A stretch of 64,000 nucleotides of DNA from Escherichia phage vB_EcoM_ECO78, in the sequence record PP526941.1. One strand, 5' to 3'. The notes below the pieces were generated by a model. The model ran no database searches. It was not told the DNA's origin and saw nothing but the letters and a program-made list of their open reading frames with translations. Both the position numbers and the translations under genes were made by a program. This document shows positions 1,612 to 46,957 of the stretch, piece by piece (position 1 is the stretch's first letter; each line of letters begins with the position of its first letter).

Positions 1612-1875
1612 TTATTTCATATTATTGAAATATTCTTCTGCGATTTCGTCGTTATCATGGTAAACTTTAGAAGACAGTTTAACATAACCTTCAGCAGCGA
1701 ACATGTTAATCACAACCTTTACAGTATACCACTGACCGTCTTCATTACCCATTACTGCATAGGTTTCAAACATCGGATGGTCAGGACCGATAACTTTAAT
1801 ATCATTCACCGTACGACCAAAATCTTCTGAAACACATTTCATAAAGAAGTTGAACAGTTCGCCGTAATTATCCAT
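1612..1875 (-). CDS. hypothetical early protein, 87 aa from the ATG (track shows a TTG-extended 91 aa form)
   Basis: ATG at 1873-1875 preceded by GGAGA RBS at 5-nt spacing; the track start at 1887 is TTG. Confidence 0.55.
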   Translation of the reverse strand: MDNYGELFNFFMKCVSEDFGRTVNDIKVIGPDHPMFETYAVMGNEDGQWYTVKVVINMFAAEGYVKLSSKVYHDNDEIAEEYFNNMK

Positions 1876-1918
1876 TTTATTCTCCAAGTTGTTTTCTGTA
1901 TCAGTAGTTGATAGTTGT

Positions 1919-1947
1919 ATAGTACCATGGAAGAACAGGGATGTAAA
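1919..1947 (-). promoter_or_regulatory. early promoter (-35 GTTTACA, 17 bp, -10 TACTAT)
   Basis: Minus strand tttcacaaaacgGTTTACA-17nt-TACTAT; same extended motif recurs at 7025-7053 and 7391-7419. Confidence 0.5.
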
Positions 1948-2081
1948 CCGTTTTGTGAAAAAAATTTTTAAAAAGTTTTAGGGAATTCTAGGGTCAGGAG
2001 GGGCAATTAAAAGATAGGATAATATATTATAAAGGGTAGAAACTAAATGATGCCTAGAGAGGTCCAGAAAGGCCTAGATAC

Positions 2082-2107
2082 CAAAAAGCCCTATCATTTA
2101 GATAGGG
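2082..2107 (-). terminator. rho-independent terminator (hairpin CCCTATC/GATAGGG plus U-run) after the 187-aa IP-like gene
   Basis: Plus strand aaaaag-CCCTATC-attta-GATAGGG; on the minus strand this is hairpin then CUUUUU. Confidence 0.5.
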
Positions 2108-2115
2108 ATTTAAGA

Positions 2116-2679
2116 TTATTTGCTTAGTTTAGTTATTATAGCTTCGGCAGCAGCTTTTAGCTTAGATGCGGTGTTAATACGATTTTTAATTTCAGTATAC
2201 GCATCGCCAAGAACATCAAGGCTATCGGAATAAACACTTACACTATTGCGTTCGCTATTTGAAATAGAACCTTTAGTTTTACGATCAAAATCAGTGTACA
2301 CGTCTTGAAGATCACGGGCTGCCTTCTTTGCATCATCCAATGCATCAAGAGCTTTATTCAAAGCATTAACATATTTTTTAGTATCGAACATATTCTTAGA
2401 AATTTTAACAGGTGCACGTTCAGGAGTAGCTAAGGCAGATTTAGGAACCTGAGCGCCTGATGCTAATTTCTTAGAAATTTTGAAAAATGCTTTATTGAAT
2501 TTATTTTCTTGACTCATCGTAAAAGAACTATTATCAATGTTATACATTTCAATAGCTTTAGCTTTCCACTTAAGAAAATCGCCACGGTCTTTTGGGTCTA
2601 ATTGGAAGAATACTTTAGTAAGATCTGCTTCAGATGGTAATTTTGCTGCTTCGGTTAAAAATTCGGCGTAGGTTTTCAT
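2116..2679 (-). CDS. internal-protein-like capsid-targeted protein (IPIII-like), 187 aa
   Basis: N-terminus MKTYAEFLTEA resembles the T4 internal-protein capsid targeting sequence; AGGA RBS. Confidence 0.6.
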   Translation of the reverse strand: MKTYAEFLTEAAKLPSEADLTKVFFQLDPKDRGDFLKWKAKAIEMYNIDNSSFTMSQENKFNKAFFKISKKLASGAQVPKSALATPERAPVKISKNMFDTKKYVNALNKALDALDDAKKAARDLQDVYTDFDRKTKGSISNSERNSVSVYSDSLDVLGDAYTEIKNRINTASKLKAAAEAIITKLSK

Positions 2680-2761
2680 TTAAAATCCTTGAAATAATTT
2701 ATTGGTTATTAATTATTTATCACGTTGTTATATGTAACAGTATTATCCGAGCGATTCAAAC

Positions 2762-2790
2762 TAAAAAGCCCCAACCTTTCGGCTGAGGCT
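2762..2790 (-). terminator. rho-independent terminator; copy 1 of a repeated ~29-bp element
   Basis: AGCCCCAACCTTTCGGCTGAGGCT hairpin followed on the minus strand by UUUUU; near-identical to 3318-3345. Confidence 0.5.
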
Positions 2791-2797
2791 AAGAATG

Positions 2798-3271
2798 TTA
2801 TTTGATTTGTTTAGCAGACCAAATGCGGTCTTTAATAATTTTTTGGATGTCTTCAACATATTCAAGAGAGTGAACATGTGGGTTATCTTTGAAACTATAA
2901 GCACGAGCTAACTTTTGGCCTTCGGTTTTGATTACTAAAAGCTCTTTAAGGATAGCTTCATATTTAGCGATAATGCCTTTAACAATATTTTTTTCTTGTG
3001 CAGCTTTAGGATCTGCTTTAGGAGCAGGTTTACCCGAAGCCTTTGCAAAAGCAGCTCCAGTAGCAACTAAACTTTTCCAAGCCATACTAACTGCATTCCC
3101 TGTAAATCCTTCTGCTTTCATATCGCGAGCAAATTGGAATCGTGATTCATCGGAAGCATCTTTATAGGAATATTTACCCGCGGCAATGGCAGCTTTTGCA
3201 ACAGCTTGAATTTCGGTGCTAGATGCTTCATTTAACACCGCTTCATTTAAAAATTGAGCATATGATTTCAT
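2798..3271 (-). CDS. internal-protein-like capsid-targeted protein (IPII/IPIII-like), 157 aa
   Basis: N-terminus MKSYAQFLNEA (CTS-like); AGGAA RBS; minus-strand TATAAATA late promoter upstream. Confidence 0.6.
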   Translation of the reverse strand: MKSYAQFLNEAVLNEASSTEIQAVAKAAIAAGKYSYKDASDESRFQFARDMKAEGFTGNAVSMAWKSLVATGAAFAKASGKPAPKADPKAAQEKNIVKGIIAKYEAILKELLVIKTEGQKLARAYSFKDNPHVHSLEYVEDIQKIIKDRIWSAKQIK

Positions 3272-3307
3272 CTTATTTCCTGTTTTAATTCGTGGTTTTA
3301 ATATACT

Positions 3308-3315
3308 TATTTATA
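3308..3315 (-). promoter_or_regulatory. T4-type late promoter TATAAATA (minus strand)
   Basis: Exact TATAAATA on the minus strand about 35 nt upstream of the ATG at 3271. Confidence 0.55.
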
Positions 3316-3317
3316 CT

Positions 3318-3345
3318 AAAAAGCCCCAACCTTTCGGCTGGGGCT
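3318..3345 (-). terminator. rho-independent terminator; copy 2 of the repeated element
   Basis: AGCCCCA-ACCTTTCGGC-TGGGGCT hairpin followed on the minus strand by UUUUU; ends the non-coding block 3346-3656. Confidence 0.55.
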
Positions 3346-3656
3346 AAGCCTTGCGGCAACCTTGTCGGGGTTCCACCTGCTAAGGCAAGTGTTTGTACGA
3401 AACGCCGGGATTCGAACCCGGTTACCAAGCAGTTGACGCTACTCAATATTTTTAAAAGGCCATATCTCGACCATATCCGAACGTTCCGTCAAAAACGCTA
3501 CTCGGCTTACGGCAAAGATATTTCCTCGAATCGATAATTCGGTGCGCCGTTTCTGCTGTGATGTAAGGGGGCATTAACCGATCGCAAAGATTTGTTAATG
3601 CCAGTCCTTACCCAGGGAACATCAGTCCGACGACTTACCGGTAGCGACCCGGTTTC
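3346..3656 (-). ncRNA. candidate stable small RNA(s), positionally like T4 rnaC/rnaD at the distal end of the tRNA cluster
   Basis: 310 bp with no ORF of 60 aa or more on the transcribed strand; locally GC-richer; T-arm-like CCGGG-TTCGAAT-CCCGG on minus strand; terminator directly downstream. Confidence 0.35.
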
Positions 3657-4007
3657 TTAATATTCTTTTAAAGCATCAATCTGTTCACGGCGTTTACGCC
3701 ATAAATCAATTGCTTCATACGCAGATTCAGCATTTCGAATTAGCCGACATTTATATAAAGACTTATGATTTTGATATTGTGTAGATAACGGAATTTTATC
3801 TAAAAGGTCTTTACGTTCAAAATATTCGTAACCATCTAAACCAAATGAACGATTTTTAAGAAATTGCCAATGTCCAAATTCGTTTTCAACATAAACATAA
3901 TCTGCATGCTGATAAAGTAAATTAATTACACGTTCAGAAATAACAGTATCATTATGATTAAAATAGAATGTTAAATCATGAACTACTAAATAAACATTAC
4001 CTTTCAT
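3657..4007 (-). CDS. hypothetical protein, 116 aa
   Basis: ATG with GAGGAAA RBS immediately downstream of tRNA-Arg. Confidence 0.55.
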   Translation of the reverse strand: MKGNVYLVVHDLTFYFNHNDTVISERVINLLYQHADYVYVENEFGHWQFLKNRSFGLDGYEYFERKDLLDKIPLSTQYQNHKSLYKCRLIRNAESAYEAIDLWRKRREQIDALKEY

Positions 4008-4025
4008 ATTTTCCTCACTTATAAT

Positions 4026-4101
4026 TGGTCGAGGCAGTAGGGATCGAACCTACGACCCAGGACTTAGAAGGTCCTTGCTCTTCCTTCTGAGCTATGCCCC
4101 G
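4026..4101 (-). tRNA. tRNA-Arg (anticodon TCT), CCA encoded
   Basis: Manual fold: acceptor CGGGGCA/TGCCTCG, anticodon loop CTTCTAA, T-loop TTCGATC. Confidence 0.8.
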
Positions 4102-4105
4102 TAAT

Positions 4106-4181
4106 TGGGGTGACCGATGGGAGTCGAACCCATGACTACGAGAATCACAATCTCGAGTTCTACCAACTAAACTACGGCCAC
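4106..4181 (-). tRNA. tRNA-His (anticodon GTG), CCA encoded, no encoded G-1
   Basis: Manual fold: acceptor GTGGCCG/CGGTCAC, anticodon loop TTGTGAT, T-arm ATGGG-TTCGACT-CCCAT. Confidence 0.7.
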
Positions 4182-4294
4182 ATTAATACCTACTCCAACA
4201 ATCAAGATGTCTTCACACGAAATTAAGAGAAGAGTGATCAGTTCAACCCTATAATCGCGTCAAGTAGATATTAATGTGACAGTTGTCACAAATT

Positions 4295-4369
4295 TGGCGG
4301 ACGTGATAGGATTCGAACCTATAACCAATCGCTTAACAGGCGATCGCTCTGCCATTGAGCTACACATCC
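4295..4369 (-). tRNA. tRNA-Asn (anticodon GTT), CCA encoded
   Basis: Manual fold: acceptor GGATGTG/CACGTCC, anticodon loop CTGTTAA, T-arm ATAGG-TTCGAAT-CCTAT. Confidence 0.75.
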
Positions 4370-4373
4370 AAAT

Positions 4374-4460
4374 TGGTGGGGAGTGATGGAGTCGAACCAC
4401 CCGAGTCGCAATGACAATGGATTTACAGTCCACACCGCTACCTCTACGGGATAACTCCCC
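4374..4460 (-). tRNA. tRNA-Tyr (anticodon GTA), class II long variable arm, CCA encoded
   Basis: Manual fold: acceptor GGGGAGT/ACTCCCC, anticodon loop CTGTAAA, T-loop TTCGACT; 87 nt. Confidence 0.75.
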
Positions 4461-4473
4461 TTAATTCTTAATT

Positions 4474-4548
4474 TGGTGGCCCTGGGTGGAATTGAACCAC
4501 CATCTGGCGATTATGAGTCGCTTGCTTGAACCTTCCAGCTACAGGGCC
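4474..4548 (-). tRNA. tRNA with anticodon CAT (Met or lysidine-type Ile2), CCA encoded
   Basis: Manual fold: acceptor GGCCCTG/CAGGGCC, anticodon loop CTCATAA, T-arm GGTGG-TTCAATT-CCACC. Met versus Ile cannot be decided from sequence. Confidence 0.7.
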
Positions 4549-4556
4549 AAATTTTC

Positions 4557-5039
4557 TTATTTTATGTAATATTTATTTAAAAACTTTCTAGCTTGAGTAT
4601 GGCTAACATTTATAGCGTTTGCATAATTTTTAATAAAACCTCGTTCATCCATATTAAAATTTTCTAATATTTTTAATCGTCTAGTTATCTCATCTTGACT
4701 TAAGGTACTTGCATTATTTTTAGAAATTTTTTCTAAGGACTGTGCCGAGTGTTTTCTACCATTAAAATTAAAATTTTTAGATTTTGGAGGAAATCTAGCA
4801 TTTAATCTCGCATCTTTTGTATTTTGATTATTAGTTGCGCAATATATGTTATTTAATGAATATGGTCCTTTATCGCCGAAACGGCACATGCAGTATTCAT
4901 GACCCTTTCTTCCACGCTTATCATAATTTCCCGTCGATTTCCACCAATGCAGCCATTCATCAAAAGTTAAATTCCATTCAATGTTTCTACGTATAGCAGA
5001 ATTCCGCTGAGAAATATATTTTGCATAATCTTCTTTCAT
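4557..5039 (-). CDS. putative homing-endonuclease-like protein (Cys/His-rich core plus C-terminal HTH-like tail), 160 aa
   Basis: Sits between the two tRNA blocks, where T4 carries segB; motif GHEYCMCRFGDKGPYS...NNQN and basic C-terminus resembling an endonuclease DNA-binding domain. Track start is GTG; ATG at 5037-5039 preferred. Confidence 0.45.
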   Translation of the reverse strand: MKEDYAKYISQRNSAIRRNIEWNLTFDEWLHWWKSTGNYDKRGRKGHEYCMCRFGDKGPYSLNNIYCATNNQNTKDARLNARFPPKSKNFNFNGRKHSAQSLEKISKNNASTLSQDEITRRLKILENFNMDERGFIKNYANAINVSHTQARKFLNKYYIK

Positions 5040-5086
5040 CACAAATTTCTCTACTTATTCAATACACTGAGCTAAATCAGCAAAAC

Positions 5087-5176
5087 TGGCGGAGGCGATA
5101 GGATTTGAACCTATGAGTCGCCGGAGCGACTGCCGGTTTTCAAGACCGGTGCATTAAACCACTCTGCCACGCCTCC
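5087..5176 (-). tRNA. tRNA-Ser (anticodon TGA), class II, CCA encoded
   Basis: Manual fold: acceptor GGAGGCG/CGCCTCC, anticodon loop CTTGAAA, long variable arm, T-loop TTCAAAT. Confidence 0.8.
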
Positions 5177-5178
5177 AG

Positions 5179-5252
5179 TCTCCATACAAGGATTTGAACC
5201 TTGGACCTCCTGATCCCAAATCAGGCGCTCTACCAAACTGAGCTACACGGAG
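5179..5252 (-). tRNA. tRNA-Pro (anticodon TGG), CCA not encoded
   Basis: Manual fold: acceptor CTCCGTG/TATGGAG, anticodon loop TTTGGGA, T-arm CAAGG-TTCAAAT-CCTTG. Confidence 0.75.
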
Positions 5253-5262
5253 TAAATTAAAT

Positions 5263-5336
<74 letters not shown>

Positions 5337-5341
5337 AAATT

Positions 5342-5428
5342 TGGTGCGAGAAGTGGGACTCGAACCCACAAGGAAATCATTCCGCAGCATTTTAAGTGCT
5401 GTGCCTTTACCAATTTGACCATTCTCGC
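5342..5428 (-). tRNA. tRNA-Leu (anticodon TAA), class II, CCA encoded
   Basis: Manual fold: acceptor GCGAGAA/TTCTCGC, anticodon loop CTTAAAA, long variable arm, T-arm GTGGG-TTCGAGT-CCCAC. Confidence 0.8.
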
Positions 5429-5429
5429 G

Positions 5430-5502
5430 CTGGGAATAAAGGACTCGAACCTTTGCATCCTGGAATCAAAATCCAGTGCCTTACCAACTTGGCTAATTCC
5501 CA
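5430..5502 (-). tRNA. tRNA-Gln (anticodon TTG), CCA not encoded
   Basis: Manual fold: acceptor TGGGAAT/ATTCCCA, anticodon loop TTTTGAT, T-arm AAAGG-TTCGAGT-CCTTT. Confidence 0.8.
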
Positions 5503-5588
5503 ATTATTAACAAAGGCTCTCAAACAAGAACCCTTGATGATAGAGGGTATTAATCAGTGCGGTATGAATTAATAATAACAAATAATTC

Positions 5589-6104
5589 TTAAAGCAAATT
5601 AAACATTTTAACGGTCGGCAAAACAATTTCTTCTTCTATATAAGAGTATTTAACACTCTCAACTACACGCAAAAAATCATAATCATAATACTCAGAAGCA
5701 TTACCTAAAATATTAATAAGTCCTTCAAGCACTTTATTACCATTCGCAAAGAATAAGTCAAATACACGTTCTTCGTCTTCTTCGGATTTATTACCAAGGT
5801 CAACTTCTATATCAAATACCTTTTTAATGAATTCTGGATAAAGTTGTTCTGAGAACAGTCCTTCAACCAAGTATTCATAAATAAAAAGCGATTGCTCGCT
5901 GAACAAGCCATTACCACAATAGCGTTCAGCTTTAGTACTAGAATGTCTGCTTTTAAACTTCTTTAAAAGATATTGGAATTGTAAGATTTCATGCTCTTCT
6001 ACGCCAAACAATGTTTTGGTTTTATAGTTATCACCGTCATTTTCCCAGGTAGTGACATCAATTACGTAACCCTGCGGAATTGTAGTACCTAAACAAATAT
6101 TCAT
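5589..6104 (-). CDS. hypothetical early protein, 171 aa from the ATG
   Basis: Track start is GTG at 6113; ATG at 6102-6104 lies 2 nt after the stop of the upstream ORF (coupled). Confidence 0.5.
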   Translation of the reverse strand: MNICLGTTIPQGYVIDVTTWENDGDNYKTKTLFGVEEHEILQFQYLLKKFKSRHSSTKAERYCGNGLFSEQSLFIYEYLVEGLFSEQLYPEFIKKVFDIEVDLGNKSEEDEERVFDLFFANGNKVLEGLINILGNASEYYDYDFLRVVESVKYSYIEEEIVLPTVKMFNLL

Positions 6105-7072: not shown

Positions 7073-7360
7073 TTACAAAAGATTTTTAGCAATAATCTTG
7101 AGATGTGCCGCAGAAATGTGTTTAGCTTTAAACAACGCAGTTTCTTCAGCAGGAGAGATAACGATTGTAGCACCATCCTTTTTAGCAGACCACCCATCAC
7201 CTAGGTAAACAGTACCTTTGATTTCTTCGCCATCAACCAAACTAATCATTGGTTTACCTTCTCGTCCTTTATTTGCTTTAATAACTTCAGAAGTAAGAGT
7301 AGCTTCAGTAATAGTAGAAACCGGGATAGTTGTAGAAGTAAATTCTTTGAAAGTTTTCAT
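7073..7360 (-). CDS. ipI: internal protein I (capsid-packaged, injected anti-restriction protein), 95 aa
   Basis: N-terminal CTS MKTFKEF...ITE; sequence and 95-aa length match T4 IPI as recalled; AGGAA RBS. Confidence 0.75.
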   Translation of the reverse strand: MKTFKEFTSTTIPVSTITEATLTSEVIKANKGREGKPMISLVDGEEIKGTVYLGDGWSAKKDGATIVISPAEETALFKAKHISAAHLKIIAKNLL

Positions 7361-7390
7361 TTTATTTTCCTAATTAATTTTGATGAGATA

Positions 7391-7419
7391 ATAGTATCAC
7401 TACCTCATCAGTATGTAAA
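7391..7419 (-). promoter_or_regulatory. early promoter (-35 GTTTACA, 17 bp, -10 TACTAT)
   Basis: Minus strand tttcacaaagttGTTTACA-17nt-TACTAT upstream of ipI; motif near-identical to 7025-7053. Confidence 0.55.
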
Positions 7420-7432
7420 CAACTTTGTGAAA

Positions 7433-35947: not shown

Positions 35948-36372
35948 TGCTTCTGATCCCTGAAACTCATGAATTAGTTCTCGAGAATGTCGAAGCACTT
36001 ATTCCTGAAGCACGGGGTCGCTTTGACAAATTGTCTTCTGCTTTAAATAAAGACGATATAAATACAATTGTCGAGAATATGCTTGATGATGAAACTGATT
36101 TAGCGGTTGCATTAGCTTCTATTAATGAAAATATGCCGTTAAATGAATTCATCGTTAAACATGTTTCCGCCCGTGGTGAAATTACTCGCACTAAAGACCG
36201 CAAAACGCGTGAACGTAATGCATTTCAAACCACTGGGCTGTCTAAAGCAAAACGTAGACAAATTGCTCGTAAAGCTACCAAAACGAAGATTGCCAATCCA
36301 GCAGGTCAATCTCGTGCTCAGCGTAAGCGTAAAAAAGCTCTTAAACGCCGTAAAGCATTAGGATTAAGCTAA
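35947..36372 (+). CDS. 68: gp68, prohead core protein, 141 aa
   Basis: Length and synteny as in T4. Confidence 0.88.
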
Positions 36373-37010
36373 TGAATGAACCCCAATTACTAATTGAAAC
36401 TTGGGGTCAACCTGGCGAAATTATTGATGGCGTACCAATGCTTGAATCTCATGATGGAAAAGACTTAGGTTTAAAACCGGGTTTATACATCGAAGGAATA
36501 TTCATGCAAGCGGAAGTCGTCAATAGAAATAAACGTCTTTATCCAAAACGTATATTAGAAAAAGCGGTAAAAGACTATATTAATGAGCAAGTTTTAACTA
36601 AACAAGCTCTCGGAGAATTAAATCATCCTCCACGCGCTAATGTTGACCCAATGCAAGCCGCTATCATTATAGAAGATATGTGGTGGAAAGGAAATGACGT
36701 ATACGGACGAGCTCGTGTTATTGAAGGTGACCATGGTCCTGGAGATAAATTAGCAGCTAATATTCGTGCCGGATGGATTCCAGGAGTTTCTTCTCGTGGA
36801 TTAGGTTCATTGACTGACACAAATAAAGGTTATCGTATCGTAAACGAAGGATTCAAATTAACTGTAGGTGTTGATGCAGTATGGGGTCCAAGTGCTCCAG
36901 ATGCATGGGTAACTCCTAAGGAAATTACCGAATCACAGACGGCGGAAGCCGATACAAGTGCCGATGACGCCTATATGGCTCTCGCAGAGGCCATGAAAAA
37001 AGCGTTATAA
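36372..37010 (+). CDS. 21: gp21, prohead core protease, 212 aa
   Basis: Length and synteny as in T4. Confidence 0.93.
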   Translation: MNEPQLLIETWGQPGEIIDGVPMLESHDGKDLGLKPGLYIEGIFMQAEVVNRNKRLYPKRILEKAVKDYINEQVLTKQALGELNHPPRANVDPMQAAIIIEDMWWKGNDVYGRARVIEGDHGPGDKLAANIRAGWIPGVSSRGLGSLTDTNKGYRIVNEGFKLTVGVDAVWGPSAPDAWVTPKEITESQTAEADTSADDAYMALAEAMKKAL

Positions 37011-37040: not shown

Positions 37041-37850
37041 ATGCTTAAAGAACAACTGATTGCCGAAGCGCAGAAAATTGATGCTTCCGTTGCTCTTGAT
37101 AGTATTTTCGAATCAGTTAATATTTCTCCGGAAGCAAAAGAAACTTTCGGCACTGTATTCGAAGCTACCGTCAAGCAGCACGCCGTTAAATTAGCTGAAT
37201 CTCATATCGCTAAAATTGCTGAAAAAGCAGAAGAAGAAGTAGAAAAAAATAAAGAAGAAGCCGAAGAAAAAGCTGAGAAGAAAATCGCTGAGCAAGCTTC
37301 TAAATTCATTGACCATCTTGCGAAAGAATGGCTCGCTGAAAATAAATTAGCAGTTGATAAAGGTATCAAAGCCGAACTGTTTGAATCCATGCTTGGTGGA
37401 TTAAAAGAGCTCTTTGTTGAACACAACGTTGTTGTTCCAGAAGAATCAGTTGATGTTGTAGCTGAAATGGAAGAAGAGCTGCAAGAACATAAAGAAGAAT
37501 CAGCTCGTCTGTTCGAAGAACTCAATATGCGCGACGCATATATCAATTATGTGCAGCGTGAAGTGGCATTGAGCGAAAGTACTAAAGATCTGACTGAGTC
37601 TCAAAAAGAAAAAGTCTCTGCTCTGGTCGAAGGTATGGATTATTCAGATGCATTCTCAAGTAAATTGAGTGCAATCGTAGAAATGGTGAAGAAATCTAAT
37701 AAAGATGAAAGCACTATTACTGAGAGTATAAATACTCCTGATACTGAAGCAGCCGGACTGAATTTCGTCACTGAAGCTGTAGAAGATAAAGCTGCACAGG
37801 GTGCAGAAGATATTGTAAGTGTATATGCGAAAGTCGCATCTCGTTTCTAA
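37041..37850 (+). CDS. 22: gp22, major prohead scaffolding core protein, 269 aa
   Basis: Acidic coiled-coil scaffold; length as in T4. Confidence 0.93.
   Translation: MLKEQLIAEAQKIDASVALDSIFESVNISPEAKETFGTVFEATVKQHAVKLAESHIAKIAEKAEEEVEKNKEEAEEKAEKKIAEQASKFIDHLAKEWLAENKLAVDKGIKAELFESMLGGLKELFVEHNVVVPEESVDVVAEMEEELQEHKEESARLFEELNMRDAYINYVQREVALSESTKDLTESQKEKVSALVEGMDYSDAFSSKLSAIVEMVKKSNKDESTITESINTPDTEAAGLNFVTEAVEDKAAQGAEDIVSVYAKVASRF
37727..37734 (+). promoter_or_regulatory. late promoter TATAAATA inside the 3' end of gene 22 (gene 23 promoter)
   Basis: Exact TATAAATA about 135 nt upstream of the gene 23 ATG. Confidence 0.55.
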
Positions 37851-46726: not shown

Positions 46727-46957
46727 ATGTTACTAGAATTTAAACAATTTCTTTATGAAGCTTCTATTGATGAATTTATGGGTAAAATTGCCTCTTGTCA
46801 AACAATAGAAGGTCTAGAAGAACTTGAAGCTTATTATAAGAAAAGAGTTAAAGAAACTGAATTAAAAGATACTGATGACATCTCCGTGAGAGATGCTTTG
46901 GCAGGAAAAAGAGCTGAATTAGAAGATTCAGACGATGAAGTAGAAGAAAGCTTTTAA
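46727..46957 (+). CDS. uvsW.1: UvsW.1, small acidic protein, 76 aa
   Basis: MLLEFKQFLYEASIDEF...; GGAG RBS before the ATG at 46727 (track start is an upstream TTG). Confidence 0.8.
   Translation: MLLEFKQFLYEASIDEFMGKIASCQTIEGLEELEAYYKKRVKETELKDTDDISVRDALAGKRAELEDSDDEVEESF

Follow-up and report, generated by a model that had tools for sequence, protein, structure and literature searches.

In the 64,000-nucleotide (nt) stretch of Escherichia phage vB_EcoM_ECO78 DNA analyzed here (PP526941.1; hereafter the window), a Tequatrovirus (T4-like) segment whose top database match over 1900-3500 is at 96.7% identity, two neighboring open reading frames (ORFs) on the minus strand probably encode diverged, paralogous internal proteins (Ips) that are made late, packaged by means of a capsid-targeting sequence (CTS), trimmed by the prohead protease gp21, injected and most likely directed against host defenses. 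ORF1 (2116-2679; 187 amino acids [aa]) starts with MKTYAEFLTEA, and ORF2 (2798-3271; 157 aa) starts with MKSYAQFLNEA. Inspection of the ORFs placed both on the minus strand and bore out the coordinates, lengths and N termini that an original prediction, made from the letters of the window, had given for both; the same prediction had taken the two N termini for T4 capsid-targeting sequences and the proteins as likely to be packaged, trimmed by the prohead protease and injected.

Both N termini retain the residues on which targeting and processing depend in T4. Mutagenesis of the T4 IPIII leader assigned positions 4 and 7 to capsid targeting and positions 8 and 10 to processing (PMC9026906), and Y4, F7, L8 and E10, followed by an alanine, are all present in both ORF1 and ORF2, in agreement with the assignment of these N termini as T4-type capsid-targeting sequences. 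The ORF1 CTS, MKTYAEFLTE (2650-2679, minus strand), is predicted to be cut by gp21 after Glu10 (LTE/A, the slash marking the cut), and the ORF2 leader, MKSYAQFLNE/AVLNE/A (3227-3271, minus strand), combines the CTS with a second LNE/A motif (residues 13-16). Such a second [LI]xE[AS] site, 5 to 7 residues downstream, is frequent among members of phrog_2280, the family to which both proteins belong. The first 11 codons of the two genes show three synonymous differences (TAC/TAT, GCC/GCT, and GCA/GCG), and the constraint therefore acts on the peptide and not on the DNA. Of the 1087 start-stop combinations that both strands of the window offer at a minimum length of 40 aa, only three, namely, ipI, ORF1 and ORF2, begin with the pattern ^MK[TS][YF].[EQ]F. 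Short motifs of this type can nevertheless arise by chance, since a looser motif also matches UvsW.1, a non-head protein (46727-46957, plus strand; 76 aa; PDB 2JPN at an expect value [E] of 1e-43); its N terminus, MLLEFKQFLYEAS, fits the loose CTS-plus-cleavage motif one residue out of register, probably fortuitously.

In ORF1, the leader site is the sole [LI]xE of the whole protein, as is also the case in T4 IPI, IPII and IPIII. Cleavage at E10 would generate the mature N-terminal peptide AAKLPSEADLTK from ORF1 and AVLNEASSTEIQAVAK from ORF2, and cleavage at E15 would generate ASSTEIQAVAK from the latter. The machinery expected to act on these leaders is encoded in the window, which carries the enzyme expected to remove the CTS, gp21 (36372-37010, plus strand; Pfam Peptidase_S77, E 1.5e-111), and the structure expected to bind it, the scaffolding core protein gp22 (37041-37850, plus strand; Pfam T4_CASP, E 3.9e-89), together with gp67 and gp23. 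A known internal protein available for comparison, ipI, lies at 7073-7360 on the minus strand (Pfam IPI_T4, E 7e-54). The predicted mature forms are 177 aa, 19.7 kDa and isoelectric point (pI) 9.5 (9.54) for ORF1 and 142 to 147 aa, about 15.5 kDa and pI 9.6 for ORF2. Their computed composition (K, 14 to 15%; A, 13 to 18%) confirmed that the bodies are Lys/Ala rich, as had been noted, and is near-equal to that of T4 IPII and IPIII; the net charge of the proteins is +8 to +9. Taken as sequence evidence, these data support the reading of the N termini as CTSs and, with it, packaging and trimming of the two proteins.

Published virion proteomics, the kind of check that the original prediction had proposed for packaging, flags the ORF2 type as virion associated, although the flag is unspecific (see below), and nothing was found for ORF1. 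In ultracentrifuge-purified virions of the Yersinia phage fD1 (phiD1) analyzed with liquid chromatography-tandem mass spectrometry, the ORF2 ortholog g140, which is 97.5% identical to ORF2, was listed as a full-confidence particle-associated protein, as were g129 and g146 (PMC8309999 Table S3). The latter two are the other CTS proteins of fD1 in the scanned ipI-to-tk region. This shows that the fD1 ortholog of ORF2 is made and copurifies with particles. Packaging of both proteins remains the likely outcome, given the detection of the ortholog in virions, the conservation of the motif across phrog_2280 and the presence of gp21 and gp22 in the window.

ORF1 and ORF2 each match the profile of phrog_2280 (function unassigned) over their full length, with E values of 2.8e-53 and 1.7e-60, respectively, and the same profile is matched by 205-aa, Klebsiella-phage and intermediate members. 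When the two proteins were compared directly, nothing aligned beyond the leader and, weakly, a stretch near the C terminus (hhalign E 0.045 over 23 C-terminal columns). A 205-aa CTS protein found at the same locus in other phages, however, aligned for the greater part of its length, starting at or close to the N terminus, to residues 1-178 of ORF1 (E 7e-5) and to residues 1-137 of ORF2 (E 1e-9), and further intermediates, e.g., P0037 and P0045, bridge the domain types. The bodies had been described as showing no obvious match to each other; because these intermediates link them, despite the weak direct profile comparison, sequence relationships indicate that ORF1 and ORF2 are distant paralogs within one divergent family of T4-like phages. 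When 1.8 billion protein representatives, a library without names, were searched exhaustively with a profile, 25 family members were recovered, all apparently from T4-like phages; in an earlier profile search, which did name its sources, nearly all were T4-like phages. The pattern [FY]xx[FI][LIV]xE lies inside the first 14 residues in 21 of the 24 full-length members, at a body identity of about 20%. By tblastn, the ORF1 type was found in 164 phage records and the ORF2 type in 511, all annotated as hypothetical (for ORF1, as "hypothetical protein"). In curated genomes, the only names that the family genes bear are RB14ncORF136c, RB32ORF132c and RB69ORF148c/149c; none of the records covered calls them Ip, and a literature search on these ORF names yielded nothing relevant.

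The family shares a common layout, consisting of the CTS, an N-terminal domain of three to four helices that occurs in two types, a disordered Lys/Pro/Ala linker and a helical C-terminal domain, and this architecture is kept across Tequatrovirus, Jiaodavirus and Yersinia phages. AlphaFold2 models of ORF1 and ORF2 (predicted local distance difference test [pLDDT] scores of 79 and 81) show two small helical domains, with the CTS and the linker below 50. The linker is much longer in the 205-aa variants, and the best-conserved parts of the family are the folded domains and not the linker. Searches for a relative of known function were negative: Pfam gave no domain, only subthreshold noise such as Cytochrom_B562 (E 0.008), and no PF11634 match; PADLOC and NCBIfam gave no match for either protein; and the best hit of a PDB sequence-profile search, which returned nothing informative, was occludin (E 0.077). 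Compared with PDB folds, the models matched nothing better than E 0.7, the hits being generic ferritin-like bundles with template modeling (TM) scores of <0.35, and a search of BFVD with the ORF1 model retrieved family members only.

The two genes occupy the interval between rnaC and e.8, in which T4 and T6 have no gene. An Rfam search of positions 1800-5700 detected tRNAs only, and the homologs of rnaC and rnaD were placed by alignment to T4. ORF2 is preceded by a perfect late promoter, TATAAATA, at 3308-3315 (minus strand), 36 nt before the ATG, and this motif is enriched in the window, with 22 occurrences found and 9 expected. A late promoter had originally been assigned to only one of the two genes. 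The ORF2 promoter was confirmed, and for ORF1 a box resembling a late promoter, GATAAATA, was found as well, 34 nt before its ATG (2714-2721, minus strand). In three relatives, the box at the ORF1 promoter position reads AATAAATA. Of the natural deviations known from T4 late promoters, this one, with an A at position -13, is the most frequent, being present at 9 of 50 sites (PMC2988020).

Each gene is followed by its own terminator, as had been proposed. A terminator hairpin after rnaC (3322-3345) forms the upstream edge of the array, and the terminator after ORF2 (2767-2790) is a near-identical copy of it, ORF2 being flanked on both sides by these hairpins. The terminator after ORF1 (2089-2107; all three on the minus strand) is unlike the other two, and its last bases, GGGCTTTTT, meet the e.8 upstream region at the place where the single terminator of T4 sits. 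In T4, rnaC is followed by the terminator AGCCCCGACCGAAAGGTTGGGGCTTTTT, by GGTAT/CTAAGCC (the slash here marking the junction) and then by the region upstream of e.8. Filled loci depart from this directly past the terminator, where GTAT/AAATA leads into the late promoter, followed by the CTS gene and a terminator. In T4, fD1 and the window, the presence/absence junctions all lie directly past GGGGCTTTTT, with GTAT/CTAAG in the empty state and GTAT/AAATA in the filled state. In this arrangement, the Ip genes look like mobile "late promoter-gene-terminator" cassettes swapped at the stem-loop by recombination.

The content of the locus varies between phages. It is empty in T4 and T6, while only the ORF2 type is present in fD1, RB18 and five metagenomic loci, only the ORF1 type in RB14, both types in the window, Phaginator, Bas37 and three others, and the 205-aa type in two loci. 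In a Klebsiella Jiaodavirus, a family homolog is found in the equivalent tRNA-to-e.x interval. For the homolog in Klebsiella phage KpV477 (L015:2841-3231), the annotation gives a pair of short ORFs that overlap, kpv477_139 and kpv477_138, and this copy may be frameshifted or decaying. Judged by these comparisons, rnaC-e.8 is an Ip locus of variable content; it is counted as the third because published work names only two, a 2025 study referring to "the two Ip loci."

CTS-defined internal proteins are a kind already well known, reportedly recognized since 1994, when Repoila et al. are said to have described Ip4 to Ip13 of the T-even phages, and ORF1 and ORF2 are new members of it. We found no published description of the family, the third locus or the cassette structure, which may nevertheless be mentioned in Repoila et al. 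1994. Homology to IPI, IPII or IPIII beyond the leader was considered and rejected, since BLASTP aligned the first 11 to 12 residues only and PF11634 was not matched. The alignment to IPII and IPIII that had been suggested as a check therefore succeeded for the leader, and the bodies proved to be without similarity and encoded at a separate, third locus. Compared with T4 IPII and IPIII, the two proteins share the 10-residue CTS and the (L/I)xE/A cleavage site, with 8/11 to 8/12 residues identical, as well as a Lys/Ala-rich composition and monocistronic cassettes, and ORF1 in its mature form (177 aa, pI 9.54) resembles IPIII (183 aa, pI 9.65). In contrast, IPII and IPIII are encoded at the denV-e locus, whereas ORF1 and ORF2 lie at rnaC-e.8 and have a predicted fold in which a disordered linker connects two helical domains. 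The promoters differ as well: early-type promoters (GTTTAC...17 nt...TAnnAT) lie upstream of ipI in the window (7390-7432, minus strand) and of T4 ipII and ipIII (L002:3740-3800 and 4440-4500, minus strand), whereas ORF1 and ORF2 have late-promoter boxes only. This difference, read from the promoter sequences, suggests differing expression timing inside the Ip class.

T4 IPI (PF11634), an inhibitor of the type IV enzyme GmrSD, is similarly CTS directed, gp21 processed and injected, and its longer leader with two cleavage sites has a counterpart in ORF2. It differs, however, by its compact alpha/beta fold, ORF1 and ORF2 having no Pfam match, and the window has an ipI of its own. Ip4 to Ip13 and Bas37_0260 resemble ORF1 and ORF2 in being small unrelated proteins with only the CTS in common, encoded at variable loci, but are located at the ipI locus; Ip5-like and Ip6-like genes adjoin the orthologs of ORF1 and ORF2 in the Bas37 genome. 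The PeSL cassettes reportedly described by Arbiol et al. in 2010, promoter-plus-stem-loop units flanking novel ORFs in T4-like phages, may be comparable in having repeated units of this kind around variable ORFs and indel junctions at the stem-loop; the present cassettes differ in that their promoter is of the late type and that the rnaC terminator provides the stem-loop. An N-terminal motif scan of ten related phage loci (L003-L012, L014), which took in the ipI and ipII/III loci, brought to light another eight or more CTS-bearing proteins, all distinct and 69 to 157 aa in length; most of them are unnamed, and the Ip repertoire is therefore far larger than the numbered Ip1-13.

Taken together, these observations are best accounted for by the following scheme. 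Each protein would be synthesized late from its own promoter, and its 10-residue CTS would bind the gp22 scaffolding core, enclosing the protein in the prohead. There, gp21 would cut after Glu10 and, in ORF2, probably after Glu15 too, leaving a basic, two-domain mature protein that would stay amid the packaged DNA and be injected at the next infection. Once in the cell, the proteins would most likely disarm host defenses ahead of any phage gene expression, by analogy with IPI, Ip2, Ip3 and Bas37_0260. At the level of the genome, the genes would be self-contained cassettes inserted after the rnaC terminator, forming the third, variable locus. Each of Ip1 (IPI), Ip2 and Ip3 inhibits a GmrSD enzyme of its own (PMC12373910), and Bas37_0260, which resembles them only in its CTS, inhibits McrBC. 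From these precedents we infer an anti-defense role of ORF1 and ORF2, possibly against type IV restriction systems such as GmrSD and McrBC, and as members of a family without a name that occupies a third Ip site, they are probably new weapons against bacterial defenses.

Several observations weigh against this interpretation or its extension to defense. Virion-proteomic data on the ORF1 type were not found in the Sfk20 and fPS-65/90 papers, and the "PPAP" flag of the fD1 data set is unspecific: in the stretch g114 to g141 it is attached to 10 of 28 genes, among them DenV, lysozyme and NudE. ORF2 contains one internal [LI]xE, LKE110, besides its leader sites. Searches of Pfam, PADLOC, NCBIfam and PDB, and searches by fold, matched no known inhibitor in fold or sequence. 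When Ip4-10 were assayed on a panel of GmrSD enzymes, no hit was reproducible, so that not every Ip need inhibit GmrSD. An arms-race effector would not usually be conserved across genera, the linker resembles a tail that binds DNA, which sits poorly with a simple anti-defense extrapolation, and the ORF1 ortholog of Bas37 was scored as essential in a transposon screen described below.

Owing to the Ip4-10 result, the cross-genus conservation and the DNA-binding-like linker, we consider a structural role of the packaged proteins as the main rival, although an unlikely one. They would then have no specific host target but would be DNA associated and charge neutralizing, the H1-like linker binding DNA and aiding genome condensation or ejection. 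Such a role would be in line with the high net charge, the K/P/A-rich disordered linker and the fact that lysines of internal proteins make the only contacts to DNA phosphates in T4 heads (PMC3012670), as well as with the architecture common to Tequatrovirus, Jiaodavirus and Yersinia phages and the intolerance of the ORF1 ortholog to transposon insertions. It is less easily reconciled with the complete absence of the family from T4 and T6, the presence/absence variation of the locus, the dispensability of the ORF2 ortholog and the better conservation of the folded domains than of the linker.

An accessory role in the prohead core, comparable to that of gp67 and gp68, is very improbable; the proteins would then be broken down to peptides after core targeting and leave the head without being injected. 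The shared core-targeting and cleavage motifs and the late expression of the two genes speak for it, but core proteins are dense in [LI]xE (16 in gp22, 5 in gp68), whereas ORF1 has the leader site only and ORF2 the leader sites plus one, and in fD1 the ortholog was found in mature virions. We give equally little credit to the view that ORF1 and ORF2 are ordinary cytoplasmic late proteins whose N-terminal likeness is inherited or accidental and functionless, since the match of the looser motif to the UvsW.1 N terminus is outweighed by the position of the motif at the exact N terminus, in register and with its cleavage site, by its conservation in a family diverged to about 20% identity and by the detection of an ortholog in virions.

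Transposon data bear on the anti-defense interpretation in a different way. In the HIDEN-SEQ screen of Bas37, the BASEL phage KarlGJung (MZ501089), bas37_0244, which is identical to ORF2 at 156 of 157 positions, carried insertions at 29 of its 34 TA sites and is non-essential, whereas bas37_0243, identical to ORF1 at 184 of 187 positions, was hit at 1 of 48 and called "Essential" (bioRxiv 10.1101/2025.11.20.689424, Extended Data Table 7). The 48 sites cover all of bas37_0243 (MZ501089, 141028-141591; L020:10029-10592), seven of them falling in the last 25 nt (positions 540-562 of 564), and the other 17 of the 18 coding sequences listed in bas37_0235-0263 reached saturations of 0.85 to 1.0 (bas37_0246-0255 are tRNA genes, with no entry in the table). 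T4 ipI, ipII and ipIII were non-essential in the same screen (bioRxiv 10.1101/2025.11.20.689424). As for trivial explanations, a polar effect would have to act on downstream genes that are themselves non-essential, and an antisense effect would have to act through an opposite strand that bears trivial ORFs only. The same screen, however, miscalls hoc and inh, and we therefore treat the call as a lead and not yet as a result; it may be a locus artefact, and bas37_0243 is not mentioned in the text of the preprint.

The Bas37 genome has no gene at the classical ipII/ipIII locus, the denV-e interval (L020:5206-5829), and its only CTS proteins in the scanned tk-to-gene-1 region are bas37_0243, 0244, 0260 and 0261. 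We tentatively entertain, as a somewhat doubtful extension, that the 187-aa protein is an injected Ip that is indispensable on E. coli K-12, although absent from T4 and T6. If the call is real, the protein might neutralize an unrecognized K-12 barrier other than McrA, McrBC, Mrr or EcoKI, or it might be required, in phages whose ipII/ipIII locus is empty as in Bas37, to fill the head or deliver the genome. ORF1 and its dispensable paralog would then constitute a third Ip locus conserved across genera, and confirmation would make this the first indispensable Ip. The transposon result is the sole element that could raise the finding further.

Injected internal proteins act prior to any phage gene expression, and every one of the four whose target is known disarms a type IV restriction system that attacks modified T-even DNA. 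The phrog_2280 family adds a third locus to a class recently treated as having two, and ORF1 and ORF2 are two concrete candidates for new anti-defense activities, many of the 511 and 164 records in which their types occur being therapeutic candidates. The organization of the locus also provides a simple way to search for others, namely, by looking after rnaC for a late promoter followed by an ORF with a CTS and by a terminator.

The region upstream of the cassettes differs from T4 in other respects. Between the rnaD homolog and tRNA-Arg, a 116-aa ORF (3657-4007, minus strand) matches phrog_3355 (function unassigned) and is RB51ORF141-like; T4 has no gene at this position, which makes it another small insertion in the variable region. 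A 161-aa ORF (4557-5042, minus strand; phrog_16521, no Pfam match) lies within the tRNA cluster, roughly at the position of the homing endonuclease gene segB of T4. Compared with that of T4, the tRNA set of the window includes His, Asn, Tyr and Met and lacks Thr, and the CAU-anticodon "Ile" tRNA of T4 probably corresponds to the tRNA called Met by ARAGORN in the window. Between tRNA-His and tRNA-Asn, a 113-nt gap (4182-4294) has neither a tRNA nor an Rfam call; RB18 and Bas37 share this gap.

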